From NCBI GenBank assembly GCA_964291265.2, contig OZ219747.1, forward strand, positions 2,048,001-2,112,000: a stretch of DNA of 64,000 nucleotides, in the 5' to 3' direction. This DNA comes from Alphaproteobacteria bacterium (GTDB lineage: Bacteria; Pseudomonadota; Alphaproteobacteria; SP197). The translations under genes and the position numbers were made by a program. Below are positions 34,487-58,325 of this stretch, in pieces; position 1 is the stretch's first letter, and every line of letters begins with the position of its first letter. The notes under the pieces are model-generated. The model worked only from the letters and a program-made list of their open reading frames with translations. It was not told the origin of the DNA and made no database searches.

Positions 34487-35455
34487 ATGAACTTCCTCCC
34501 CACGATCGCGTCAGCTGCGGCTGGTGCGTTGCTTGTGGGCGTTGCAGCGACAGCGGGCGCCCAGTCAATTCCCGAAACGGATGAGCCGATCAAGCTCGCC
34601 ATGAACGAGTGGACGGGCCAGCACGTTTCGACGGTCGTTGCCGGCGAAACGCTGAAGCGGATGGGCTACAACGTCGAGTACGTCACCGCCGGATACTATC
34701 CTCAGGTCACGGCTGTCGCCGACGGCGATATTCACGCAACCCTGGAAATCTGGAGTTCCAATATCGGTGACGCCTGGGATGAGCACTTTGACTCCGGCGA
34801 GGCCGTCAAGGTTGCGGTTGCTGGTCTCAAGCCCCAGGAGGCCTGGTATGTGCCGGCCTATGTCGTGGACATGTGCGAGGGCCTGCCGAGCTGGGAGGCG
34901 TTGAACGATTGCACGGCACTCTTCGAGACCGCGGACACCGCGCCTTCGGGACGCTTCCTCGACTATCCGGCCGAGTGGGGTGATTCGAACAGCAAGCGCA
35001 TCGAGGCGCTCGATCTTGATTACGTTTCCATTCCGTCGGGAGGCGAGGGTTCGCTCATCACGGAGATTCGCTCGGCCGTCGAACGCGAGGCGCCGCTGCT
35101 CCTGATGTTCTGGGAGCCGCACTGGATCCATGCGCAGATCGACCTTCAGCGCGTCTTTCTTCCCGAGTACTTCGATGGCTGCCACGACGATGCGTCGCTG
35201 GGTCCCAACCCGGACATGGTCTTTGACTGCGACTGGTCGGGGGGCGAGATCTGGAAGGTTGCCAATCCATCGCTCAGGGAGTCGCACCCAGGCGCCTGGA
35301 GACTGATCGAGGTTTATTCGATCACCAATACCGAGCAGGCCCAGATGATGTCGGAGATCGATGACAAGGGCCGCGATCTGACGGAAGTCGTCCAGGAATG
35401 GCTCGACAACAATTCCGGAACGGTCGAGGGCTGGATCGATCAGGCGTCCATGTAA
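34487..35455 (+). CDS. OpuAC-family (glycine betaine/quaternary amine) ABC substrate-binding protein
   Basis: Signal peptide; NEWTGQ, EIW, WYVPAY, FWEPHW; AGGAG SD. Confidence 0.85.
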   Translation: MNFLPTIASAAAGALLVGVAATAGAQSIPETDEPIKLAMNEWTGQHVSTVVAGETLKRMGYNVEYVTAGYYPQVTAVADGDIHATLEIWSSNIGDAWDEHFDSGEAVKVAVAGLKPQEAWYVPAYVVDMCEGLPSWEALNDCTALFETADTAPSGRFLDYPAEWGDSNSKRIEALDLDYVSIPSGGEGSLITEIRSAVEREAPLLLMFWEPHWIHAQIDLQRVFLPEYFDGCHDDASLGPNPDMVFDCDWSGGEIWKVANPSLRESHPGAWRLIEVYSITNTEQAQMMSEIDDKGRDLTEVVQEWLDNNSGTVEGWIDQASM

Positions 35456-35472
35456 CGACTGGCGTCCTTTCC

Positions 35473-35520
35473 GGGAGAGGACCGGGGAGGCTGGTGTTGC
35501 GCCGGTCTCCTCCTTTTCTT
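35473..35520 (+). terminator. Possible intrinsic terminator after SBP gene
   Basis: Imperfect GGAGAGGACCGG...CCGGTCTCCTCC stem followed by TTTTCTT, between convergent genes. Confidence 0.4.
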
Positions 35521-35534
35521 GAGCGCGGTCGCGA

Positions 35535-36032
35535 TCACCCTGCCCGGGTGAGCGCCAGGTTGTGATGCCGGTCCCTGGTGGCGGACCAGCCATCGGGCAA
35601 CCGCGATGGTGGCCGTGTCGTCCTCGATCAGGGCCGGCCCTCGCGCGTGCCGCACCGGGCGCCATCGCGGTCCGGTGACCGATGACGCCGTCACGCCATT
35701 CTCTCTGGTCTCAGGTAGCGCGAGGGCTCAGAGGGGGATCCCCTCGTTGTCCGGTTCCTCCTTCAGCGTCGGCACGTCCTCGAGCGGAGCCGACACGCCG
35801 AGACGGAAGGTGACGATCTCGATGGGTCTGGAGGCATCACCGCCATGCATGAAGACCCTGTGATGCTCATCGGCGCAACGTGTCCTCAGACCACCGGTTG
35901 TCAGCCCTGACGGCGGATCCATGGGGACCGCGACCTCGAATGCCTGTCCGACGAATCTCATGTCGGCAATGAACGACATGCGTGGCCGGGATCCAAGGCC
36001 CATCAGGACAAAGCGCTCGATCGCGCGCCTTG
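35535..36032 (-). pseudogene. Duplicated, frameshifted 3' fragment of hydantoinase/oxoprolinase A
   Basis: ADMRFVGQAFEV...GPALIEDDTATI split across frames; copy of 57832-58325. Confidence 0.88.
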
Positions 36033-36340: not shown

Positions 36341-38182
36341 TCAATCGACGATGTGGTAGACCGGCGCCTTCTCCATGGACCAGGTGTCCGTCTCGGCGTC
36401 GTACCGCGACAGCGTGAAACAGTGCCAGTTGTCATCGTCGAGCATCATGTGGTCGCCCCGGTAGTAGTACCCCGGCCAGCGTGTCTCCTTGCGAAAGAGC
36501 GTGTGCCGCATGACACTCTCCGACGCCAGGAGCCGATGCCGGAACTCCCATGTCCGCTGCAGCTGGTGAAGATCCTCGGCGCCGATGTGCCGGGCATCGT
36601 CCTTCAGCATCTCCATCAGTTCCAGACCGCGATCGAGCAACGGCTCGTTGGTCATGTAGTTGACCGTGATGCCGCCGCAGTACTCGTCCATGAGCTTTTC
36701 GAGGCGCTGCAGGGCGTGGAGGGGCAGGATGTAGCTCGGCGAAACCGTTCCGGCGACGATTTCATTGCGGCCGATAGCGTAGTTGTCGAGCGGTTTGAAG
36801 ATCTCCGTCTGGAGGCGACCGATTTCCGTCTCGTCGACCATGGGCTCGTCACTGACATCGTTGATGTAGTTCACCGCGGCCTTGGCGGCGATCCGGCCTT
36901 CCGTGAACGACCCCGACGAGAACTTGTGCGGGGTACCACCGCTGGCGTCGCCGGCGCCGAACAGGCCACGGGTGGTCGTCATGCGGTTGTAGCCCCATCG
37001 GTACTCGGACGGCGCATAGTCTTCCGGACCGCTTGCCCAGGCGCCGGAACAGGTGGCGTGAGAGCCCATGACATAGGGTTCCGACGTTGTCAGCTCCGGG
37101 TTGGTGTGCTTGGGGTCGATGTTCTGTGATGCCCAGACCACGGCCTGGCCGATGGTCATGCCCAGGAAGTTCTCCCATCCCACGGTTTCCTTGTGCGGAT
37201 CCTGAAAGGCCTCCGTGGTCACCATGCGGATCGGTCCTCCGCCATGGGCGAGTTCCTTCAGCAGGGCATGGTTGCGCAGGCACGTCGGAACCGGGTGACG
37301 GTCGACATAGTCACCGACCAGTTTCCTGGTATCTTCGTACCATCTGGATTCATACTCTTCGCCGTAGGCGTTCTGCGTGTAGGTCTTGAGATGCAGGAAA
37401 TAGGCGCCGACGGGGCCGTAGCCGTCCTTGAACCGGGTCAGGACGATCCGGTTCTCCATCTGCGTCATCTTGGTGCCGATCTGAATGGGCAGGCCGTAGG
37501 CCGATGCACTGCTCCAGGGCGCATACCATGTCCTGCCCATACCTTCGCCGACGGCCCGCGGCTTGAAGATGTGCGAGGCACCGCCCGCCGCAACGATCAC
37601 GGCCTTCGCCCTGAAGACGTAGAAGTCACCCGTGCGGACGTTGAAACCCACCGCGCCCGCGGTCCGGTTGGGATCCCGCCTGTCGACGAGAAGGTGGGTC
37701 ACCATGATACGGTTGTAAACCTCGGTCGCGGCCTTTCGGGCAGCCTCGGCGACGATGGGCTTGTAGCTTTCGCCGTGGATCATGATCTGCCACTTGCCCT
37801 CGCGCTGATAGCGGCCGGTCTTCGGATCCCGCATCATGGGAAGGCCCCAGTCCTCGAACATGTGGACAGTTGAATCCACGTGCCGGCCGATATCGTAGGC
37901 CAGATCCTCGCGAACCAGTCCCATCAGGTCATTGCTCGCATAGCGGACAAAGTCCTCAGGCTGATTCTCGCCCCACTGCATACCCATGTAGCAGTTGATG
38001 GCGTACAGACCCTGTGCGACAGCGCCACTGCGCTCGATATTGGCCTTCTCGACGCAGACGACCTTGAGATCACGCCCCCAGTAGCGGGCTTCGTAGACAG
38101 CGCCGCATCCGGCCATGCCGCCGCCGACGACGAGAATGTCGCAAGCGACCTGAATTGTCCTTCTGCGCTTGAAGAGGCCCAT
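36341..38182 (-). CDS. aprA: Adenylylsulfate reductase alpha subunit
   Basis: ERSGAVAQGLYAINCYMG, GKWQIMIHGESYKPIVAEA, RFKDGYGPVGA, HKFSSGSFTEGR, ETRWPGYYYR. Confidence 0.96.
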   Translation of the reverse strand: MGLFKRRRTIQVACDILVVGGGMAGCGAVYEARYWGRDLKVVCVEKANIERSGAVAQGLYAINCYMGMQWGENQPEDFVRYASNDLMGLVREDLAYDIGRHVDSTVHMFEDWGLPMMRDPKTGRYQREGKWQIMIHGESYKPIVAEAARKAATEVYNRIMVTHLLVDRRDPNRTAGAVGFNVRTGDFYVFRAKAVIVAAGGASHIFKPRAVGEGMGRTWYAPWSSASAYGLPIQIGTKMTQMENRIVLTRFKDGYGPVGAYFLHLKTYTQNAYGEEYESRWYEDTRKLVGDYVDRHPVPTCLRNHALLKELAHGGGPIRMVTTEAFQDPHKETVGWENFLGMTIGQAVVWASQNIDPKHTNPELTTSEPYVMGSHATCSGAWASGPEDYAPSEYRWGYNRMTTTRGLFGAGDASGGTPHKFSSGSFTEGRIAAKAAVNYINDVSDEPMVDETEIGRLQTEIFKPLDNYAIGRNEIVAGTVSPSYILPLHALQRLEKLMDEYCGGITVNYMTNEPLLDRGLELMEMLKDDARHIGAEDLHQLQRTWEFRHRLLASESVMRHTLFRKETRWPGYYYRGDHMMLDDDNWHCFTLSRYDAETDTWSMEKAPVYHIVD

Positions 38183-38646
38183 CAGACCGCTCCCGGCCTG
38201 AGGCGTTTGGGATCCAGAACCGGCAGCCCGCCGTCAATGTTGAGGAGGTCGGGTTCGTGGGCGAGTTCCTGGGACCTGAAACGGGAGGCCTCCGGCCGGT
38301 CGTACTCGGCGGACGACTTGATCGATCCCCATTTCGTGGTGCGAATGGGCGAGACGAAGCTCTTCTCTTCGCCGTTTCTGAACTTGATCTTCCAGGAAAC
38401 GGTGCCCTTGTCCTCTTCGCGGCGTACCCGTACGCTGTGACCGAGCGGTGCAAAGTCCGCATACCCACGCACGTCGATGGCGTTCTGCGGGCACGCCTTC
38501 ACGCATGAATAGCACTCCCAGCACATGTTCGGCTCGATGTTGAAGGCGCGACGATAGGTCGTGTCGATGTGCATGATGTCGGACGGACAGATATCGACGC
38601 AATGTCCGCAACCGTCGCAATGGCTCATGTAGACAAAGGTTGGCAT
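38182..38646 (-). CDS. aprB: Adenylylsulfate reductase beta subunit
   Basis: MPTFV..CDGCGHCVDICPSDIM...CWECYSCVKACPQNAI (two 4Fe-4S sites), RGYADF. Confidence 0.96.
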   Translation of the reverse strand: MPTFVYMSHCDGCGHCVDICPSDIMHIDTTYRRAFNIEPNMCWECYSCVKACPQNAIDVRGYADFAPLGHSVRVRREEDKGTVSWKIKFRNGEEKSFVSPIRTTKWGSIKSSAEYDRPEASRFRSQELAHEPDLLNIDGGLPVLDPKRLRPGAV

Positions 38647-38698
38647 GGCGTTAGGTCAGCTCCCAGATCGAAAACCCGTTCCACACGGGCCGGTGAGG

Positions 38699-39481
38699 TC
38701 AGTAATGGCGTGGCATCTCGGTGACGCGACCGAGAACTTCGGGCTTGTCGGCCGGCGGCGGAAGATTGCCTCGCGATCCGTCCGCTTCCGCCACGCGCTT
38801 CTGGAATGCGATGGCAGGCTTGTAGAACATGTGAGAAAACTTGGACCAGGGCACCGATCCAAAGAGCACCGTGGTGGAGACGGCATACAGGCCGAGGAAG
38901 ACATCGGCCACCGGACTCTCCGCCGTCTGGAGGAGTCCCCAGATGAACGCCATCGTCGTGCTGACCAGGAGCGAGAGGATGAAGAGGTCCGCACGCACGA
39001 TTCGCCAGGGGGGATGGCCTTCAGCGGCCACGTCAACCCGGATGAAGAACCAGAACCAGTATCCGCCGCCGCAGACCATCACGATGCCGAGATACCAGAG
39101 CAGGGGCCAGATGGCGGGAGTCGGCGTGGCCGAAGTCGGGTAGCCGAAGACCATGGCGATGGTGGCGGCAAGATAGGCCACGAATCCGTACATGGTCAGC
39201 AGGTGCGCGATCCTGCGCCGCAGGTTGCAGAATTCACCCGAAGCCAGCACGTCGACCGCGGAAGCCTGGACTGCGAGGGACACCATGTGAGCGCCACTGA
39301 CCGGCCGGTTGCCCCGGTTTCTCGCGTGACGCCAGTTGTCAAAGAAGTACCGGGCGCTCCTCTTATGGAGCACATCGAACAGGGTCCCTCCCACGACCAG
39401 CAGGATCATGGTGACGACAAAGGCCTGCGTGACTGCAGGCGCTACGAGAAGCCCTGCAAAGGGATTGCCGAAGAACATCAT
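38699..39481 (-). CDS. aprM: Adenylylsulfate reductase membrane anchor
   Basis: Multi-TM; HKRSARYFF, SGEFCN.RRRIAHLLTMYGF, VPWSKFSHMFYKPA; directly upstream of aprBA. Confidence 0.88.
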   Translation of the reverse strand: MMFFGNPFAGLLVAPAVTQAFVVTMILLVVGGTLFDVLHKRSARYFFDNWRHARNRGNRPVSGAHMVSLAVQASAVDVLASGEFCNLRRRIAHLLTMYGFVAYLAATIAMVFGYPTSATPTPAIWPLLWYLGIVMVCGGGYWFWFFIRVDVAAEGHPPWRIVRADLFILSLLVSTTMAFIWGLLQTAESPVADVFLGLYAVSTTVLFGSVPWSKFSHMFYKPAIAFQKRVAEADGSRGNLPPPADKPEVLGRVTEMPRHY

Positions 39482-41199
39482 TCGTCCCTGGTTTGACCGA
39501 AAGCGAAGTTCGGTGGCGGCATCGGCCCTGAACGCCGGTCACGGGACCGCTGCGCTGTCCGTGATCTCATCGGGTGCGTACTGCTGTCGTGGTCGCATGA
39601 CGTCGGATCTGCCGGCATGAAGCCACACCCTCCGTGCTCGTATCGTACTGATGAACCCCGCCGGCCGGGCCGAAGGGAAGCGATGGTGCCACTGTGCCCC
39701 CTTTCTTCCGGCTTATCAACATGGGGCGTGCGCCGGACAAGGCCTTCCCACGCTGGAATTCGCTTGATTTCACTTGACGTCAGGCGTTCGTATGTTGCAC
39801 GCGCGCGGACATTTCCCGCTGGCCATCCCGCTTGGGATGTGCGACGGTCCGGTCATGTCGATTCGCAAGCTCATGGAAGCTGTCCCGATCCATCAGGAAG
39901 CACCTGAGGGTTTTTCCCTGTCTGAGGTCGATGTTCGCCTGGCGAGGCCGGAGGAGCGTCCGCTGTGGGACGCGCTGATGAACAAGCACCACTATCTCGG
40001 CTTCCGTCGCCTGGCGGGTCGCGGTCTGCGCTACCTTGCGACCTTCAGGGGCCATTGGCTGGGGCTGGCGGCGTGGCAGAACGGCGCCTTCAAGTGCGCT
40101 CCCCGCGACCAGTGGACCGGCTGGAAGCCGGAGCAGCAGTTCCAGCGGCTCTCGATGGTAGCCAACAACACGCGGTTCTTGATCCTCTCCAAGCCCGGGG
40201 TGTTTGCGAACCTTGCTTCCTGTTTCCTTGCGTGCATGACGCGCCGGCTCTGTGACGATTGGCTGCAGGTGCACGGCCACGGGGTGCTGCTGGCGGAGAC
40301 GTTCTGCGATCCGGAGATCTTTGCCGGCACGATGTTGAAGGCTGCGGGCTGGACGTGTCTGGGTGAGACCAAGGGGTTTGCCCGCTCCAACGGGCGTTAC
40401 ACCGATCCTCACGGCAAGCCCAAGGATATCTACGTTACGGCACTGAGGCGCGATGCCCGGGCGCTGCTGTCGAGCCCGCTGCCGCTTCCCCCCGACGTGG
40501 CGCCGCCCTCATGCCCCGAACTGGCGCCCCGGGACCCCAAGGTGCTGCGCTCGCTCTACGCCGAGCTCGCGGCCATTCCCGACTTCCGCCGGGCGCAGGG
40601 AAGGAAGCATACCGCGGCATCGGTGCTCACCGTGCACGTGCTCGCCGAGTTCGCCAACATGAAGGGCTGTGTCGCCGCCGCGCAGTTCGCGCGGTCCCTG
40701 TCCCAGGAGGAGTTGGAGGCCATCGGCGCGTGGCTTAACCCGAAGACGGGGCTTCGCGAGCCCGTCTCCAAGTCCACCATCCACCGGGTTATCCAGTCGA
40801 TCGACCCCGAGGCTCTGGAGGATGTGCTCACCCGCTGGTCCCGGCCTCGGCTTCACCTCGCCCGTGCACTCGCCGCCGACGGCAAGCGCATCCGCGGCGC
40901 CAACCGCAACGGCGATGGCCGTCTGAGAGACCGTGGCCCTTGTCGACCATGAGACCGGCGCGCCCTTTTCCCTCCTGAACTTCAACGACGACGGCGGCGA
41001 ACTGGCGGCCATGCACGATCTCCTGGAGCGCAGCGACATCGGCGGCAAGGTGATCACACTCGACGCACTGCACACGACACGCCATACCGCAAAGCTGATC
41101 ACACAACGCGCGGATTACGTCTTCGTCGTCATGTTGATGGCTGCATAGAACGGCGGGATTTCGGCGATTTGCCGCGCTTTGTCAGGGTCGTGTTTCTTC

Positions 41200-41291
41200 C
41201 CTGTTGTCAGGTCCTATTGTCACGTCCTGTTGTCGTGGTTTGAGTGTTCGGCTGGTTGTCTCCCCGAGCGCCGCCGTCTTTTCCTATTGTC
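41200..41291 (+). repeat. CCTRTTGTC motif x4 (three at 13-bp period); inverted copy near right end
   Basis: Copies at 41200, 41213, 41226 and 41283; ACAATAGG at 46330-46337. Confidence 0.7.
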
Positions 41292-41612
41292 GTTTTGGTC
41301 CGGTTCGGGTTGTTCCGTCGGCCTCTGCTTCGGTCTTGGTGACGGTTGCCGGGAGGGTTCCGGTTCCGAGGCACTCGCGGGATTGTTTGTCTTCCCTGTG
41401 GGCGGGTCGCGTTGTCCGGTCCCGGGGCGGCGTCTTTGCCGCCGCCCCGGGTGGATGCTAGATCGGCATCAAGAGAAAGAGCGATGCGATGCCGGGCGGA
41501 GTTGTGACGCCCCCCGGCGCAGCACCCGGACGAGCCGGTCACGGGGGACCGAACTCCCGTGTATTGTCGAGCCATTTTGCGTCCGGGTCCACCCCCGCTC
41601 TCGAGACGGACG

Positions 41613-42089
41613 GTGTGCACGACAGGACGACTGTTCAACTGCAGGCGGTGTCAGCGGCAGGTTGTTCTCTGCCGGTCGTGTGACCGGGGGCATGTGTATT
41701 GCTCCAAGGAGTGCAGGGAGCGGTCCCGGATCGAGCGGCGCCGCGCGTCGCGTCGTCGCTACCAGAGCACGCTGAAGGGCCGTGAGACGGGCCGTCACCG
41801 CCAGCGGCGTTACCGGCTCCGCAAGGCGGAGGAGGCGCGTGCGTTGAAGGCCAGGGCGGCGATGGTTGCCGAGATCATGGACACGCAGACGTCTGCTGTG
41901 GTGCTGCTTGGCGACGTTCCGGCGGTGTCTGGAGACGCCGGTTCTGAAGAAATCGTTACGGACCACCCTTCCCGACTGCTGCCGACCTCCCTACCTGCGG
42001 TTGTGAAGGCGCAAGAGCGACGCGAATCGCCGCTTCGGTGCGCCAGATGCGGACGGGTCGTGACGCATGTGGTGCTGAGGGACCTGTGA
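41613..42089 (+). CDS. Cys-rich (Zn-finger-like), Arg-rich hypothetical protein upstream of istA
   Basis: CRRC...CRSCDRGHVYCSKEC, basic helix, C-terminal CARC; start uncertain (41559 or 41613). Confidence 0.65.
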   Translation: MCTTGRLFNCRRCQRQVVLCRSCDRGHVYCSKECRERSRIERRRASRRRYQSTLKGRETGRHRQRRYRLRKAEEARALKARAAMVAEIMDTQTSAVVLLGDVPAVSGDAGSEEIVTDHPSRLLPTSLPAVVKAQERRESPLRCARCGRVVTHVVLRDL

Positions 42090-42121
42090 TGCGGCGTTGA
42101 GGAACCAAAGGGAGGGAGTTC

Positions 42122-43615
42122 ATGGCGATCGACGAGGACACGCGGGCGACGATCGTGCGGCTGTCGCGGGCCGAGGGCTGGGCTGTGGGGACGATTGCCC
42201 GGCATCTCGGCGTGCACCACGGCACGGTGACGCGGGCGCTCAAGGCGTCGGGGCAGGAGCGGCGGCCGCGGGCCAAGCTCATCGACCCCTTCGTTGCCTT
42301 CCTCGGGGAGCGTCTTGAGGCGTCGCCGGACCTTCCGGCCAGCACGCTCTGGCGACAGGTCGTGGCTCTGGGCTACCGCGGCGGCGAGGATCACTTCCGT
42401 CACGACCTGCGCCGCCTCGGGCTGAGGCCGGTGAAGAGGCCCGAGCCGTCGCTGCGGCTGAGCTTCCTTCCGGGCGAGCAGGCGCAGGTTGACTGGGCCG
42501 AGTTCGGGAAGGTCCGCATCGGCCGGGCGGAGCGCAGGCTCATGGGGCTTCTCGTCACCCTCAGCTACTCGCGCCAGACTGTCCTGAGCCTGTTCCACGA
42601 CGCGCGGATGGCCAGCTTCCTGCAAGGCCATGTCGAGGCTTTCGCGGCATTCGGGGGTGTGCCGCGGAGGCTTCTGTACGACAACCTGAAGAGTGCCGTG
42701 GTGACGCGCCGCGGCAAGGCGGTCACCTATCATCCGATGCTGCTCGGCCTTGCGGCCCACTATGCCTTCGAACCGAGCGCCGCCTGGCCCAGGAGCCCGC
42801 AGGAGAAGGGCCGCGTGGAACGCCGTGTGCGCTTCGCGCGCACCGGGTTCTTCGCCGGGCGCGACATCACGGTCCCGCTCGGCGAGCTCAACGCCGCAGT
42901 TCGGGAGTGGTGCTTCGGCGCCGCCGCGGAGCGGCCCTGGCCGGACGACGACAGTCTCCTGGTGCGGGACGCCTTCGCCCGGGAGAGGGAGCACCTGATC
43001 GTCCTTCCCGTCGACCCCTTCCCGCATCACGAGGTCCGCCCGGTGCGCATCGACAAGACCTGCCACGCCCGCTTCGACACCAACGACTACAGCGTTCCGG
43101 GTAGCTTCTCCAAGGCCCTGCTGACGCTGGTCGCCGACCGCGACGAGGTCCGCATCCTCGACGGCGCCGACGAGGTCGCGCGCCACCGACGCTCCTACGA
43201 CAGGAAGCAGGCCGTCACCGATCCGGAGCATGCCAGGGCGATCGCCGCGGGCAAGCGGCGGGCCCGCTCCATGAGCGTCCGCGACCGGGTCCTGCGCACC
43301 GTGCCGCGGGCCGAGGAGATGCTGGCGCGCGCCGGGACCAACGGGCGCAACGTGGCCTCCTGCGCCCGGATGCTGGAGACGCTTCTCAACGCGCACGGCG
43401 CCGACGCTCTCGACCGGGCTGTCGCCACGGCGCTGGAGCGCGGCTCGTGCCACCCCGAAACCGTGCGCGTCATCATCGAGGAGCGCCGCCGGGAGCAGGG
43501 CCTGCCGCCCCTCAGCATCGCCGACGACGGCCGCGGCGGCCGTGGCACGACGCCGCGGGGGACCGCTCTCGACGCCTACGACAGGCCCGAAGCCAGCGCC
43601 AGGAACAAGACATGA
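42122..43615 (+). CDS. istA: IS21 family transposase IstA
   Basis: HTH N-terminus; DDE residues in QVDWA, YDNLKSAV, EKGRVER; GGAG SD. Confidence 0.93.
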   Translation: MAIDEDTRATIVRLSRAEGWAVGTIARHLGVHHGTVTRALKASGQERRPRAKLIDPFVAFLGERLEASPDLPASTLWRQVVALGYRGGEDHFRHDLRRLGLRPVKRPEPSLRLSFLPGEQAQVDWAEFGKVRIGRAERRLMGLLVTLSYSRQTVLSLFHDARMASFLQGHVEAFAAFGGVPRRLLYDNLKSAVVTRRGKAVTYHPMLLGLAAHYAFEPSAAWPRSPQEKGRVERRVRFARTGFFAGRDITVPLGELNAAVREWCFGAAAERPWPDDDSLLVRDAFAREREHLIVLPVDPFPHHEVRPVRIDKTCHARFDTNDYSVPGSFSKALLTLVADRDEVRILDGADEVARHRRSYDRKQAVTDPEHARAIAAGKRRARSMSVRDRVLRTVPRAEEMLARAGTNGRNVASCARMLETLLNAHGADALDRAVATALERGSCHPETVRVIIEERRREQGLPPLSIADDGRGGRGTTPRGTALDAYDRPEASARNKT

Positions 43616-44313
43616 GCGAGCTCAGGGAGCGTGCCCGGGCGCTCGGCCTCCACGGGCTCGTCGAACGCTGGGACGAGGTCGCCGGGACCGCATGGATCGA
43701 GGAGGTGGTCAGCGGCGAGGAACAGGCCCGCAGGGCCCGCAGCCACGAGCGCCGCCGCGCCGCGGCGCGGCTGCCCGCCTTCAAGCCCCTGGCGGACTTC
43801 GACTGGACATGGCCGCGCGACATCAGCCGGGCTCATGTCGAAGCGCTCCTCGGCCTCGGCTTCGTCGACCGTGCGGACAACGCCGTGCTCGTCGGCGGGC
43901 AGGGCACCGGAAAGACCATGATCGCCGCCAACGTGGCGCACCAGGCCCTGCTGCACGGCCACACCGTCCGCTTCGAGAAGGCGCCGGAACTGCTCGAGGC
44001 ACTCGCCGAGACCGTCTCGCGCAGCGAGCTGCGCCGCCGCCTCGCGATCCTCGCCAGGCCCCGCCTGCTCATCCTCGACGAAATCGGCTACGTGACCCTC
44101 GAAAGCCACCATGCCGACATCCTCTACGCCATCGTCTCGCGGCGCTATCAGCGCCGCTCGACCATGGTCACGACAAGCCTCGCCTTCGCCCAGTGGGACC
44201 GCGTCTTCCCCAGCGCCTCCGGCATCGCCGGCACCGTCGACCGGCTCATGCACGACGCAACCCTCATCTCCATCGACAGCGACTCCTGGCGGCTCAGGCG
44301 TGAAACCGGATAA
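43612..44313 (+). CDS. istB: IS21 family ATP-binding helper IstB
   Basis: ATGA overlap with istA; DFDWTW, GGQGTGKT, LILDEIGY, VDRLMH. Confidence 0.92.
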   Translation: MSELRERARALGLHGLVERWDEVAGTAWIEEVVSGEEQARRARSHERRRAAARLPAFKPLADFDWTWPRDISRAHVEALLGLGFVDRADNAVLVGGQGTGKTMIAANVAHQALLHGHTVRFEKAPELLEALAETVSRSELRRRLAILARPRLLILDEIGYVTLESHHADILYAIVSRRYQRRSTMVTTSLAFAQWDRVFPSASGIAGTVDRLMHDATLISIDSDSWRLRRETG

Positions 44314-45193
44314 ACCCCGCCGCGTCGACTTCGACGCCGTCAAGCGCATGCCGTTCGAACGCATCGCCGCCGACTGGGGATACGTCCGCGACGAACAGGC
44401 CTCGACACGCGCCAACCCCGTCCTGTGCGCACCCGGCCTGCCGAAGCTCGTCACGAAGTGCCTCAACAACGGACACTGGGTCTACTTCAACACCCAGAAC
44501 GATGAAGACAACGGAACCGTCATCGACTTCATGCTCAACCGCGGACTGGCCTTCGCCGACATCTGCACCCGCTTCGCAGCACCCGACGCCGCGCCACGCG
44601 ACTTCCGCAGCCTCTGGGCCGCGGCAACGCCCGATGCGGCCCCGGACTGGCTCACCGGGCGCGGCATCCTCCCAGAGACCCTCGACACCTGCCGCCCCCT
44701 GGTCCGCCGCGACCACAACGGACGCGTCCTCTTCGCCCATCGCAACAGGAAGCGAAAGCTCACCGGCTTCGAGATCGGTCCCCCCGACGGACCGAAACGC
44801 TTCGCCACCGGTGGAACCCGAAGCCTGTTCGCCGTCCGCGCCGGAACCGCCGCGGACCTCGAGGCCCTCGTCATCACCGAAAGCGCCGTCGACGCCCTCA
44901 GCCTGGCCCAGATCGACCAATGTCCCCCCAGCCACGCCTTCCTCTCCACCGCCGGGGCACCCTCGCGAAGACAGCACGAACAGATCAGCCTCGCCGCAAG
45001 CAGCCTGCCCAACGTCAGGACCATCGTCCTCGCCCAGGACCACGACGAGGCCGGAGAGCGACAGGCCGAAACCCTGCGCAAAAAGATGAAGCTCCCCTCC
45101 CACGTCTCGTTCCACAGACGCAGACCGCCGGAAAACGCCGACTGGAACGACGTCGTCAACGCCAGGACCAAAGAACCACAAGCGAGATCATGA
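44300..45193 (+). CDS. DUF3991/Toprim-domain primase-like protein
   Basis: GTG start overlapping istB; DNGTVIDF, LTGRGI, ITESAVDALS, AQDHDEAG (DxD), DWND. Confidence 0.75.
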   Translation: MKPDKPRRVDFDAVKRMPFERIAADWGYVRDEQASTRANPVLCAPGLPKLVTKCLNNGHWVYFNTQNDEDNGTVIDFMLNRGLAFADICTRFAAPDAAPRDFRSLWAAATPDAAPDWLTGRGILPETLDTCRPLVRRDHNGRVLFAHRNRKRKLTGFEIGPPDGPKRFATGGTRSLFAVRAGTAADLEALVITESAVDALSLAQIDQCPPSHAFLSTAGAPSRRQHEQISLAASSLPNVRTIVLAQDHDEAGERQAETLRKKMKLPSHVSFHRRRPPENADWNDVVNARTKEPQARS

Positions 45194-45510
45194 CCACGTC
45201 CGTCACAAGGAGACCACTCATGCCCCTCACGCCCGCCGAAAAGCAGCGGCGATACCGGGAACGGCGCAAGGCCGGCATCCCTCCCGTCCACACCCCAAAG
45301 CACCGTGACCGGCGCTCGCGACCGCAACGCTGGAACGACGCCGTGGCCGAACTGCGCTCCCTGCAGGACGAATGGCGTGACCACCTCGACAGCATCCCCG
45401 AAAGCCTCCGTGACACGCCTTACGGAGAACGCCTGCAGAGCGTCGCCGATGCCGACATCGAGGCCCTCGAGGACATCGAACCGCCACGCGGCTACGGAAG
45501 GGATACGTGA
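45190..45510 (+). CDS. Small hypothetical protein (basic N-terminus, acidic C-terminus)
   Basis: ATGA overlap with the Toprim gene; alternative ATG 45220 with AGGAG SD; TPAEKQRRYRERR...RSRPQRW...PPRGYGRD. Confidence 0.65.
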   Translation: MTTSVTRRPLMPLTPAEKQRRYRERRKAGIPPVHTPKHRDRRSRPQRWNDAVAELRSLQDEWRDHLDSIPESLRDTPYGERLQSVADADIEALEDIEPPRGYGRDT

Positions 45511-46104
45511 TCCCGCAAGACCCTTGAACGCGGTCACGCGTTACCATCCAGGAATGAGAACGTCTCACCCCGACGCGCCGCTCAGCCTCCCCGGGAAACT
45601 CCCGGGCCGTCCAAACGACACCGCATCACGAGACTGCCGCAGCCTCTGAGCCGCAGCGACGCCCGATCCGCCGCCGGGCTGGCTCACAGGTCGCAGCATC
45701 CGCCCGAAAACACTCAACGCCTGCCGCACCCTGCAGGACGAATGGCGTGACCGCCTCGACAGCATCCCCGAAAGCCTCCGTGACACGCCTTACGGAGAAC
45801 GCCTGCAGAGCGTCGCCGATGCCGACATCGAGGCCCTCGAGGACATCGAACCGCCACGCGGCTACGGAAGGGATACGTGATCCCGCAAGACCCTTGAACG
45901 CGGTCACGCGTTACCATCCAGGAATGAGAACGTCTCACCCCGACGCGCCTCTCAGCCTCCCCGGGAAACCCCCGGGCCGTCCAAACGACACCACATCACG
46001 AGACTGCCGCAGCCGCTGAGCCGCAGCAACGCCCGATCCGCCGCCGGACTGACTCACAGGTCGCAGCATCCGCCCGAAAACACTCGACGCCTGCCGCACC
46101 CTGC
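45361..46104 (+). repeat. Tandem duplication, 370-bp unit
   Basis: 45361 matches 45731 (CTGCAGGACGAATGGCGTGACC); 45721 matches 46091 (CTGCCGCACCCTGC); few mismatches. Confidence 0.9.
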
Positions 46105-46682
46105 GCCGCCGCAACCGCAACGCACGCAGCCTCTTCGCCCAGCGAACAGAAACCGTAAGCTCTCCAGCCTCGAGATCGTCCCGCCCGACGAACCACGACG
46201 AGGCCGGAGAACGCCAGAACAAGACCCCGCGCAAAAGCCTGAAGCTCCCCTCCCACATCACGTTCCACAAACGCCGACCGAAACGACATCGTCACAACGT
46301 CAACGTCAACGCAAGACCAATGGGATCCAACAATAGGCAGAAAACAAAGACCGGGCGGACCTTCGTCCAATGCCGCACGTTCTCCTGTCGTGGTCACCCA
46401 CTCACACGATCAGCGCCCAAAAGAGCGGTTCTCCGCCAATATCCCGCCGTTCTAAATCGCCGCCGACACGTCAAGGGCAACGCTCCGGAGACCTTCGCTA
46501 TCCTCGACAGCATCAATTGGCAAAAAGACGCCACCGGCCACTTCACGGAGCCGTTCGACAAGGCGCACGGTCGACTGGAGCAGCGTTCGATCAGCGTCCT
46601 CGTCCCGTTGGACGGTCTGATCAACTATCCGGGCGTCCGTCAGGTCGCCCGCATCACCCGCTATCGGGAGCCGTGGAAGAAA

Positions 46683-46850
46683 GGCTCCGGCGATGCCGGG
46701 AAGGAAGGCTCCGGCGATGCCGGGAAGGAAGGCCCCGGCGATGCCGGGAAGGAAGGCTCCGGCGATGCCGGGAAGGAAGGCTCCGGCGATGCCGGGAAGA
46801 AAGGCCCCGGCGATGCCGGGAAGAAAGGCTCCGGCGATGCCGGGAAGCAA
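46683..46850 (+). repeat. In-frame 24-bp VNTR x7 (G[S/P]GDAGK[E/K/Q])
   Basis: GGCTCCGGCGATGCCGGGAAGGAA units, contiguous, inside the ISAs1 transposase 3' segment. Confidence 0.95.
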
Positions 46851-47318
46851 GAAGAGAAGGATTACACGGAAACCGATTACATCATCACCTCTCTCGATAC
46901 GGGGGCCACGTCGCCGGAAGAGTTGCTGCGACTGAACCGCCGCCACTGGGCCGTGGAAAATCTGAACCATCGACAAAGGGATTGCGTCTTCGGCGAAGAC
47001 GCCTGCCTGACCCGCACCGACAACGGCCCGGCGAACCGGGCCAGCCTCAACAACATCGCGCTCGCGGTGATCTTCGCCAACCGCCGCGAGGCCGAAAGCC
47101 TCGCCGAAACCCGGCGCCGCCTACAACTGGACCGTCGCGAGGCCATCAACGCCCTGACCCGGCCCTGAGACGCCTTGAGCGTCCGGGGACCCCGGAACGC
47201 TGCTAGACCGAAGTTCCGGACGTTTTCCAGCTGGAAGTCGCGTCAAGTCGTTGATCTTGCGCGGTTTATCGGGTTTGACGGACTTCACAACGTACCCATG
47301 TACGGATGCATTTTGTGC

Positions 47319-47347: not shown

Positions 47348-48791
47348 CAGTAGCCATGTACATCGAAGCCGTCCCCAACCGCTCCTCGCCGCCCGCCATC
47401 CTGCTCCGCGAGTCCTATCGCGAAAACGGAAAGGTCAAGAAGCGCACCATCGCCAACCTCTCCAAGTAGTCCCCCACCCTCGTCGAGGGATTGCGCATCC
47501 TCCTCAAGGGAGGAACAGCAGTCCGACATCTCGACGATGCCTTCGACATCGTCCGCTCCCTTCCCCACGGGCATGTCGCCGCAGTGCTGGGAACCCTGAA
47601 GAAGCTGGGACTGGACAGGCTGATCGACCCGAAGCCCTCGGCACGGCGCGATCAGGTCCTGGCCATGATCGTGGCACGCATCCTCGAGCCCGCCTCGAAG
47701 CTGGCCACGGCCAGGGGGCTGGCCGAGGCCACGGCGGTCAGCACCCTGGGCGAGGTCCTCGATGCGGAGATGGACGAGGACGCCCTCTATGGCGCCATGG
47801 ACTGGCTCCTGGAGCGTCAGGAGAGGATCGAGCGGTCCCTGGCGAAGCGGCGCCTCGAAGAGGGCTGCCTGGTGCTCTATGACCTGACCTCGGTATGGAT
47901 GGAGGGGAGAGCGTGTCCCCTGGCAAGGAGGGGTCATTCCCGGGATGGCAAGAAGGGCAAGCTGCAGATCGAGTTCGGCCTTCTGTGCGATCGGGACGGC
48001 TGTCCAGTGTCGGTGGAAGTGTTCCCCGGCAACACGGCGGACCCCGGGACGGTGGCATCACAGATCACCACGCTGCAGGAGCGCTTCTCCCTGGCGAAGG
48101 TGGTGCTGGTGGGAGACCGGGGGATGCTGACCGAGGCGCGCATACGCGAGGAGGTGAAGCCTGCGGGCCTGGACTGGATCAGCGCCTTGAGGGGACCGGC
48201 CATCCGCGCCCTTGTGGAGGCCGGCGACGTCGAGATGTCGCTCTTCGACGAGAGGGACCTGGTGGAGATCACCAGCGATGCGTATCCCGGCGAACGCCTC
48301 ATGGTCTGCCGCAACCCCCTGCTGGCCGAGGACCGGGCCCGCAAGCGCCAGGAGCTGCTCGAGGCCACCGAGGCCCTGCTTGAACCGATCGCCGCAGCGA
48401 CACGGCGCGACAAGCGCCGTCTCAAGGGTGCCGACAAGATCGGGGAGCGGGTCGGCAAGGTCATCGGTAAATACAAGATGGCGAGTAACTACTCACCCCC
48501 TACTGATGACGGATCGTTTTTCCTGACGGGTTCGGATCCGGCATTGTCTCTTGCCGCCTTCACTTGCTCGCTTCCGATGATCGGATGTGCGTGTTCCGAC
48601 TGACAAGAAGCGGATCGATCTTCGTCTTCAGCTCCACGTTCCGGCCTTATATGGCCAGGTTTTGTCCCCGTGATGATGCAATCATCCACAGCGGTTGGCT
48701 GCCTTTCCAATCCTCTGGAGATATGCGCTTGACATTGTAGGAGGGGCACTCTACATGCAGGCCATCGGGGCGGTTTGCGTCGGAGATATTG

Positions 48792-49466
48792 ATGGCGGCA
48801 TGGTATGGATCGAAGGCGACGACGGGTCTGAGCCAGGCGATCGTCGCGGCCATGCCGCCGCATGACGTGTACATCGAGGCGTTCCTTGGGGGCGGCGCGA
48901 TCATGAAGCGCAAGCCACCGGCGCTACGCAGCATCGGCATTGACCTCAACCGCCGGGCGATCGACACCTTCCGCTGTGACTATCCGGTGGAGCTTCACCA
49001 AGGCTGCGCCCTGCGTTTTCTCGAGACCTTCGCCTTCCAGGGCCGCGAGCTGGTCTACTGCGACCCGCCTTACGTGCAGTCGACGCGCCGGTCGCAGCGC
49101 CGCTACCGCTTCGACTGCACGGACGATGACCATGTTGCGCTCCTCGACATCCTGACGTCGCTGCCCTGCCAGGTGATGATCTCCGGCTATCCCTCGCGGC
49201 TCTACGACACGCACCTCGCCGGCTGGCGCTCGGCCGAGGTCCAGGTCAACAACCAGGCCTGCGTTGTCACCGAGAAGCTGTGGTTCAACTTCGCACCGGG
49301 CCGACCGCACTGGCATACGTGTGCGGGCAGGAACTCGATCGACCGCCAGCGCATCAAGCGCCTCGCAGAGAGCTGGGCGCGGCGCTACCGGACGATGCCC
49401 GAAGGCGAGCGGCTCGCCGTGCTGGCGGCAGTCATGGCGGTGGAGGCGTCGTCATGGCGAGCGTGA
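48792..49466 (+). CDS. Compact Dam-like DNA adenine methyltransferase
   Basis: YGSK, motif I IEAFLGGGA, motif IV YCDPPY, VMISGY, EKLWFN; GGAG SD; its 3' end overlaps the transposase start. Confidence 0.85.
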   Translation: MAAWYGSKATTGLSQAIVAAMPPHDVYIEAFLGGGAIMKRKPPALRSIGIDLNRRAIDTFRCDYPVELHQGCALRFLETFAFQGRELVYCDPPYVQSTRRSQRRYRFDCTDDDHVALLDILTSLPCQVMISGYPSRLYDTHLAGWRSAEVQVNNQACVVTEKLWFNFAPGRPHWHTCAGRNSIDRQRIKRLAESWARRYRTMPEGERLAVLAAVMAVEASSWRA

Positions 49467-57193: not shown

Positions 57194-57752
57194 TCCGGCG
57201 AGGCCGTCAGCAGGCGCCCCAGGAGGCCTGGTATGTGCCGGCCTGTCGTGGACATGTGCGAGGGCCTGCCGGGCTGGGAGGCGTTGAACGATTGCACGGC
57301 ACTCTTCGAGACCGCGGACACCGCGCCTTCGGGACGCTTCCTCGACTATCCGGCCGAGTGGGGTGATTCGAACAGCAAGCGCATCGAGGCGCTCGATCTT
57401 GATGACGTTTCCATTCCGTCGGGAGGCGAGGGTTCGCTCATCACGGAGATCCGCTCGGCCGTCGAACGCGAGGCGCCGCTGCTCCTGATGTTCCGGGAGC
57501 CGCACTGGATCCATGCGCAGATCGACCTTCAGCGCGTCTTTCTTCCCGAGTACTTCGATGGCTGCCGCTCAAGGAGTCGCACCCGGGCGCTTGGAGACTG
57601 CTCGAGGTCTATTGTCGATCACCAATGCCGAGCAGGCCCAGATGATGTCGGAGATTGACGACAAGGGCTGCGATCTGACGGAAGTCGTCCGGGAATGGCT
57701 CGACAACAATTCCGGAACGGTCGAGGGCTGGATCGATCAGGCGTCCATGTAA
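57194..57752 (+). pseudogene. Degraded 3' duplicate of the OpuAC-family SBP gene
   Basis: VVDMCEGLPGWEAL...; frameshifts and a deletion; no 5' half. Confidence 0.9.
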
Positions 57753-58325
57753 CGACTGGCGTCCTTTCCGGGAGAGGATCGGGGAGGCTGGTGTTGCGCC
57801 GGTCTCCTCCTTTTCTTGAGCACAGTCGCGATCACCCTGCCCGGGTGAGCACCAGGTTGTGATGCCGGTCCCTGGTGGCGGACCAGCCATCGGGCACCGC
57901 GATGGTGGCCGTGTCGTCCTCGATCAGGGCCGGCCCTGCGAGTGCCGCACCGGGCACCATCGCGGTCCGGTGACCGATGACGCCGTCACGCCATTCTCCC
58001 TGGTCGTGGTAGCGCGAGGGCTGGAAGGGGATCCCCTCGTTGCCCGGTTCCTCCTTCAGCGCCGGCACGTCCTCGAGCGGAGCCGACACGCCGAGACGGA
58101 AGGCGACGATCTCGATGGGTCTGGAGGCATCCCCGCCATGCATGAAGACCCTGTGATGCTCATCGGCAAAACGTGTCCTGAGACCACTGGTTGTCAGCCC
58201 TGACGGCGGATCCATGGGGACCGCGACCTCGAATGCCTGTCCGACGAACCTCATGTCGGCAACGAACGACATGCGTGGCCGAGACCCAAGGCCCATCAGG
58301 ACAAAGCGCTCGACCGCGCGCCTTG
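57194..58325 (+). repeat. Right copy of the ~1.2-kb direct repeat
   Basis: Matches 34793-36032 with a ~90-bp deletion and small indels in the SBP part. Confidence 0.93.

Follow-up and report, generated by a model that had tools for sequence, protein, structure and literature searches.

An active IS21-type transposon with a primase-fold gene behind istAB that may help to prime its own DNA synthesis

We analysed a 64,000-nt stretch of an alphaproteobacterial genome (GenBank assembly GCA_964291265.2, contig OZ219747.1, positions 2,048,001 to 2,112,000 of the forward strand), hereafter the window, in which an IS21-type element of 5,337 bp occupies positions 41132-46468 (Table 1). The left end opens with TGTTGATGG at 41132 and the right end closes with ...CCGACA at 46468, so that the element has TG...CA termini, and CGTCA flanks it on both sides. 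The two ends are identical at 21 of 29 and 32 of 47 positions, the core of the left inverted repeat being TAGAACGGCGGGAT. With respect to the repeated sub-elements of IS21 ends (L1/L2, R1/R2), we found only short TGTCAGGTC-like repeats at 41180-41226 and no clear second inverted-repeat core. The element is inserted into a transposase gene of the ISAs1 type. Contigs of two of three runs contain the empty-site joint 41126->46469, which skips 5,342 bases (the element plus one duplication) and probably stems from other copies of the multi-copy host element.

Table 1. Features of the IS21-type element and of the gene that it interrupts, in window coordinates
Feature	Positions	Strand	Remarks
5' part of interrupted ISAs1-type transposase, outside the element	39774..41131	+	DruA-like N-terminal domain
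Left target-site duplication	41127..41131	.	CGTCA
Left terminal inverted repeat	41132..41178	+	TGT..., core TAGAACGGCGGGAT; 8 other genomes have related ends
orf1, Cys-rich putative zinc-binding protein with long basic helix	41613..42089	+	7 invariant Cys; longest open start 41559
istA, IS21 DDE transposase	42122..43615	+	D124, D187, E233; NF033546 222 bits, cut-off 160
istB, AAA+ helper ATPase	43612..44313	+	PF01695 171.8 bits, cut-off 24.1; NF038214 192 bits, 8 under the cut-off of 200
DUF3991/Toprim protein	44300..45193	+	predicted primase fold of the T7 gp4/DnaG type; no zinc ligands
Small ORF, accessory passenger	45190..45510	+	likely start 45220
Decayed tail: second copy of 370-bp repeat and Toprim-gene relics	45511..46421	+	relics 80-82% identical
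Right terminal inverted repeat	46422..46468	-	...CCGACA
Right target-site duplication	46469..46473	.	CGTCA
3' part of interrupted ISAs1-type transposase, outside the element	46469..47168	+	

The five open reading frames (ORFs) are co-oriented, and the last four are chained by overlaps: ATGA joins istA to istB, 14 bp are shared by istB and the Toprim gene, and another ATGA joins the Toprim gene to the small ORF. The DDE triad of IstA is invariant in 16 of 16 aligned sequences, IstB carries GGQGTGKT as Walker A and D156-E157 as Walker B, and the fourth protein, in which E194, D247 and D249 are present, matched Toprim_2 and, weakly, DUF3991 in a profile search. These results agree with the first-pass annotation, which had described one unit within a single pair of inverted repeats and one target-site duplication, with chained genes and intact DDE, Walker and Toprim motifs. 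We found no fold match at E ≤ 0.001 and no clear family match for orf1 and no sigma-70 consensus promoter, and the cluster matches of orf1 and the small ORF were all unnamed. Because AAGGAGA lies just upstream of 45220, this position rather than 45190 is probably the start of the small ORF. The final ~900 bp of the element contain a 370-bp direct duplication and decayed copies of pieces of the Toprim gene. By its enzymes and ends the element is an IS21-type machine; the canonical definition of two ORFs does not describe it, with four conserved genes.

The fifth gene, which the first-pass annotation had counted as part of the unit, did not hold up in a search of other genomes. The small ORF follows the Toprim gene in only one of 20 other genomes and is broken in four of 36 copies of the window genome. 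Judged by these sequence comparisons, the conserved core comprises orf1, istA, istB and the DUF3991/Toprim gene, and the small ORF is a passenger. A copy of the small ORF with 77% identity lies in a 2-kb IS110-like element (family judged by eye from the ORF) that is present in four copies in the window genome (L073:3489-5466), and similar ORFs were seen near the ends of other insertion sequences (L151, L159, L160).

The window genome contains 46 left ends and 40 right ends of the element. Among 35 matched end pairs, a count that leaves out solo left ends, 32 have target duplications (26 of 5 bp, four of 6 bp and two of 7 bp) and three have none; the right end is CA in all 35 and the left end TG in 34. 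The full-length copies are 98-99% identical, and the element is highly successful in this genome, occupying ~4.3% of the main contig. Intact full-length ORFs were counted for orf1 (35/35), istA (34/34), istB (37/37), the Toprim gene (35/36) and the small ORF (32/36). The element is active and mobile as one unit, generating duplications of 5-7 bp. It has no strict target immunity, because copies are nested inside other copies; nested self-insertions and a 21-kb composite, in which one outer duplication brackets two direct copies, lie at 295923-308929, 4058043-4075257, 4144635-4152391 and 4237410-4258495 of contig G000:C2. Targeting to replication forks was rejected, as 16 copies run with the leading strand and 19 against it, with replichores assigned from GC skew. 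Left flanks fall within repeats in 13 of 35 cases against a background of 22%, an excess that may reflect survival bias. A circle junction with abutted ends was neither present in the assembly nor listed in the contigs of three runs of one study, contigs being prone to drop rare forms.

The linkage of the Toprim gene to istAB extends beyond this genome. An alignment search with the Toprim protein yielded 66 loci from 20 genomes (19 of these genomes are named as uncultured Alphaproteobacteria). In 62 loci the Toprim gene is immediately preceded by istB, and the other four are Toprim fragments. In eight genomes with several copies, whole elements were delimited; they are 4.0-4.7 kb long and have related ends as well as duplications. 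In the reverse search, 57 of 58 istB matches had the Toprim gene directly behind them in 16 genomes that had been chosen through Toprim, the exception being an outgroup of 49% identity; another genome has 29 istB matches. Close istAB homologs lacking the Toprim gene, which the first-pass annotation had singled out as the sign of a one-off capture, were thus not found in this set. Among 60 relatives chosen independently of Toprim, IstA matched in five: three with Toprim, one truncated remnant and one sister of 47% identity without Toprim. Among 400 other genomes from the class, the IstA query matched two, which both lack Toprim, and it matched none of 300 further genomes of the family of genome G402. 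Viral contigs gave 45 weak loci with best identities of 22-39%.

We then compared selection on the four genes over 12 elements. The median pairwise ratios of non-synonymous to synonymous substitution (dN/dS) were 0.40 (IstA), 0.37 (IstB), 0.43 (Toprim) and 0.54 (orf1), as obtained by a simple NG86 count on non-independent pairs and likely inflated throughout by high GC content. From these values, the Toprim gene is under purifying selection, as is istA. In the test of co-phylogeny that the first-pass annotation had proposed, the distances of IstA and Toprim are correlated (Mantel rho 0.90), and the 12 Toprim-bearing IstA proteins form one clade (100/100) against seven Toprim-less sisters, when the long branches L067 and L070 are set aside; trees that include both gave no resolved topology. 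In the IstB tree, L058 and L059 fall outside the 12-element clade though their Toprim proteins group with it, which may reflect loss of Toprim in some sisters or a module swap. Since orf1 is common to the Toprim-less sisters, it is older than the capture of the Toprim gene. These data demonstrate joint inheritance and selection of Toprim with istAB and do not in themselves imply a mechanism.

The structure model of the Toprim protein (mean predicted local distance difference test score, pLDDT, 91.6) resembles primases. The best match of a fold search was the T7 gp4 primase (1nui; Z 15.4, root-mean-square deviation 3.5, 179 residues aligned, residues 97-292), followed by Aquifex DnaG (Z 13.4), and Twinkle was also among the best matches, whereas topoisomerases and small Toprim domains ranked below the primases (Z 10.8 or less). 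The family profile matched T7 gp4 with an E value of 1.4e-8. The model retains the RNA-polymerase domain of DnaG/T7-type primases, i.e. the N-terminal subdomain and the Toprim domain. All 25 relatives share E194, D247, D249, D281, N283, D284, R121 and R174, the window protein has the acidic metal ligands E194, D198, D247, D249, D281 and D284, and five acidic catalytic positions stay acidic across all three transposon types that carry the gene (see below). The zinc-binding domain zf-CHC2 had no match in 44 family members; the protein lacks a four-ligand zinc-binding domain and is not a canonical DnaG.

The distant relatives of the Toprim protein are encoded on plasmids and integrative and conjugative elements (ICEs), often as the C-terminal part of relaxases. 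A scan of 26 longer relatives from a list of 150 found a relaxase domain in 10 and no IstB-Toprim fusion. The other Toprim-family matches in a 401-genome sample all lie in plasmid/ICE-like settings (6/6), and family members adjoin RepA/ParA-like genes in some plasmids (L172, L173). The DUF3991/Toprim family comprises 1,127 clusters at E ≤ 1e-30. Literature naming DUF3991 yielded no experimental function of these proteins; for one member, co-regulation with genes of plasmid transfer is reported (PMC13055273). The Toprim gene of the element was likely captured from a conjugative plasmid.

Two further transposon types have a gene of this family behind the ATPase gene. The second type is 4,006 bp long with TGT...ACA ends and contains a weakly DUF6431-like gene, an IS481-like transposase gene, an ExeA-like ATPase gene and a DUF3991/Toprim gene. 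It accounts for 15 Toprim matches in one genome (G409; L148:2647-6652) and also occurs at L153, L154, L155, L156, L158 and L055:6876-10533; the order transposase-ATPase-Toprim is found in G406, G412, G413, G416 and L055, and the duplications are inconsistent among five copies. In the third type, seen at a single metagenome locus (L067:318-5693), orf1, a ParB-like gene, istA, istB and the Toprim gene lie within one pair of inverted repeats with no clear duplication. The Toprim proteins of the three types form separate clades in an unrooted tree, those of the second type being closest to MobV-fused domains and that of the third 40-50% identical to plasmid proteins. Separate clades, each behind an ATPase, suggest repeated capture, and we infer from these sequences that the three types acquired the gene independently. 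Seven ~750-bp remnants of second-type Toprim genes were also observed in the window genome (G000:C2; L071, L072 and five more places), the one in L072 near another DDE/ATPase pair. At L070, a close relative of the L067 Toprim gene lies directly behind a different istA, with no istB.

In the model element IS911, host DnaG is reportedly needed for synthesis of the circular copy. In IS21, IstA nicks the 3' ends and IstB captures the target DNA, both being required (PMC11208146, PMC10122671), and a copy-out/paste-in route through a circle has been proposed (PMC11208146); in the copy-out route, the 3'-OH of the flank primes synthesis of the circular copy (bioRxiv 10.1101/2023.06.07.543989). Such synthesis would expose the other strand as single-stranded DNA, on which a primase encoded by the element would initiate the complement; DUF3991/Toprim proteins would do the same job on plasmid strands transferred by relaxases. 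The element would then be less dependent on host DnaG and the restart machinery, and the overlap of the Toprim reading frame with istB would match supply of the protein to the ATPase. A primase with its origin in the transfer of single strands would suit the second-strand step that is missing, and self-priming is therefore favoured. We consider it about an even chance that the captured plasmid primase-fold protein of this active IS21-subgroup transposon primes transposition-linked DNA synthesis. Tentatively, ATPase-assisted DDE transposons may have domesticated the relaxase-linked DUF3991/Toprim primase of conjugative plasmids at least three times, which would have made them self-priming, with the primer of the replicative step provided by the transposon itself.

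Several observations weigh against priming. Seven sister elements, with IstA 42-47% identical, have orf1-istA-istB without Toprim, so IS21 transposition does not require the Toprim gene. The host encodes priA and dnaG, and a host devoid of restart genes was accordingly dropped as an explanation. As for the protein, 12 of 25 relatives have N in place of D198, and conserved Cys residues are absent from the N-terminal domain, H59 being the only conserved Cys/His in residues 1-95. We take R84, K122, R124 and K137 of the T7 primase to be the nucleotide-binding positions of the basic ridge; in the profile alignment, R84 and K137 correspond to the retained R121 and R174, but K122 corresponds to E158 and R124 to G160, which is G/A/S in 25 of 25 relatives and K/R in 38 of 44 members of a wider set. 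Basic-ridge residues position the initiating nucleotide in primases (PMC7367122). The invariant R167 may compensate for the altered ridge.

The changes in the basic ridge and at D198 would suit a protein that helps transposition without making primers, by binding single-stranded or forked DNA at the strand-transfer intermediate, by recruiting or remodelling proteins, or by using its metal site to process the non-transferred flank; so would the conservation of the N-terminal domain, which equals or exceeds that of the Toprim domain (0.80 versus 0.75). However, six catalytic-site positions (the five acidic ones and N283) are invariant among the relatives, acidity is preserved in all three transposon types, and the whole primase RNA-polymerase domain is kept, with primases and not nucleases at the top of the fold search. 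Such a helper role deserves serious attention but is on balance unlikely. A still less probable reading is that the gene is a selected passenger with no part in the transposition reaction, which promotes passage of the element from cell to cell by priming the second strand after conjugative transfer or benefits the host. The family usually resides on conjugative or mobilizable DNA, its co-regulation with transfer genes has a precedent, and elements of the window genome do acquire passengers such as the small ORF. Yet the position of the Toprim gene, immediately after the ATPase gene, is fixed in three transposon types, and in the present element the gene has a stop/start overlap and has long co-diverged with IstA, while the ends enclose neither a relaxase gene nor any other gene for transfer; the small ORF, as the true passenger, differs in being patchy and sometimes broken.

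The first-pass annotation had also raised replication of the excised circle, in which case the circle would be a self-replicating mini-replicon, with IstB serving to initiate or load and the Toprim protein to prime. IstB does score weakly against DnaC/DnaI models, and the plasmid family members beside RepA/ParA-like genes point the same way. This proposal is weak because profile searches found no helicase or Rep gene inside the ends; moreover, similarity to DnaC is common to all IstB proteins, and simple insertions with duplications account for 32 of the 35 paired copies, so we regard it as very improbable. As for a neutral, one-off hitchhiking capture, the single origin in this lineage and the existence of Toprim-less sisters are what it would predict, but the Toprim dN/dS equals that of the transposase down to ~50% IstA identity. 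Together with the IstA clade, these sequence-based estimates leave neutral capture strongly disfavoured and, in our view, scarcely credible.

The priming of the DNA-synthesis step in IS21 and other circle-forming elements is the question that this element addresses. It is a compact carrier of a primase fold with natural Toprim-less sisters as controls, which makes priming testable with one point mutant. If true, self-priming would assign a first function to the DUF3991/Toprim proteins, whose family is large and found on conjugative DNA, and would offer a case in which to test the replication functions that copy-out transposition really needs.

Other features of the window were recorded alongside. 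The host ISAs1-type element (39738-47207) is multi-copy; a DruA-like domain (PF14236, 72 bits) forms the start of its ORF, a variable 24-bp tandem repeat is present at 46651-46875, and the copy in the window is frameshifted near 40924. In two genomes, a gene for a D12-class adenine methyltransferase immediately precedes an IS66-like transposase gene (window 48789-49466; L055:4803-5477). aprA (TIGR02061, over cut-off) lies within 36341-39481 on the minus strand, with upstream genes for ferredoxin-like and membrane proteins that are likely aprB and aprM. A ~1.1-kb segment is repeated 22.3 kb apart with 90-99% identity (34861-36030 and 57244-58323).

In a literature search outside subscription papers, ISfinder and TnCentral, we found no publication on the orf1-istA-istB-Toprim arrangement, and the element is real and active, and apparently an undescribed IS21 variant. 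The undescribed subclass suggested by the first-pass annotation thus stands as a stable subgroup carrying a primase-fold gene, but not as a five-gene unit. Among its closest known relatives are the sister elements on Aromatoleum, Mesorhizobium and Paraburkholderia plasmids (L078, L079, L081, L112), which share the Cys-rich orf1, the related IstA and, in those checked, related ends, but have a short hypothetical gene rather than Toprim after istB. The plasmid/ICE DUF3991/Toprim proteins, free or fused to MOBP, MOBQ or MOBV relaxases, have the same domains and acidic motifs at 26-38% identity, but are set in conjugation or replication modules. Tn6049 of Cupriavidus metallidurans, a multi-copy 3.5-kb element with a GspA/ExeA-like ATPase, resembles the backbone of the second Toprim-bearing type by description rather than by sequence, and no primase is mentioned in the accessible parts of its reports (PMC2864759, PMC4739549). 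The T7 gp4 primase domain and DnaG share the predicted RNA-polymerase-domain fold and the Toprim acidic residues with the element's protein, which differs in having no zinc ligands, no helicase or helicase-binding domain and altered basic positions. The IS-excision enhancer (IEE), a PrimPol-helicase, likewise places a primase at the copy-out step of circle-forming insertion sequences (bioRxiv 10.1101/2023.06.07.543989), but it combines the archaeo-eukaryotic primase (AEP) fold with a helicase, is encoded by a separate gene outside IS21 elements, acts on many IS families and promotes their loss. Canonical IS21 elements (IS21, IS5376) share the DDE IstA, the AAA+ IstB, TG...CA inverted ends, mostly 5-bp duplications and little target specificity (PMC11208146, PMC10122671); they have two ORFs, whereas the present element has two more conserved genes, a length of 4.0-5.3 kb, a longer IstA C-terminus and the ability to insert into itself. 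Known insertion sequences leave the start of DNA copying to the host, whereas by our model this element likely helps to start its own.

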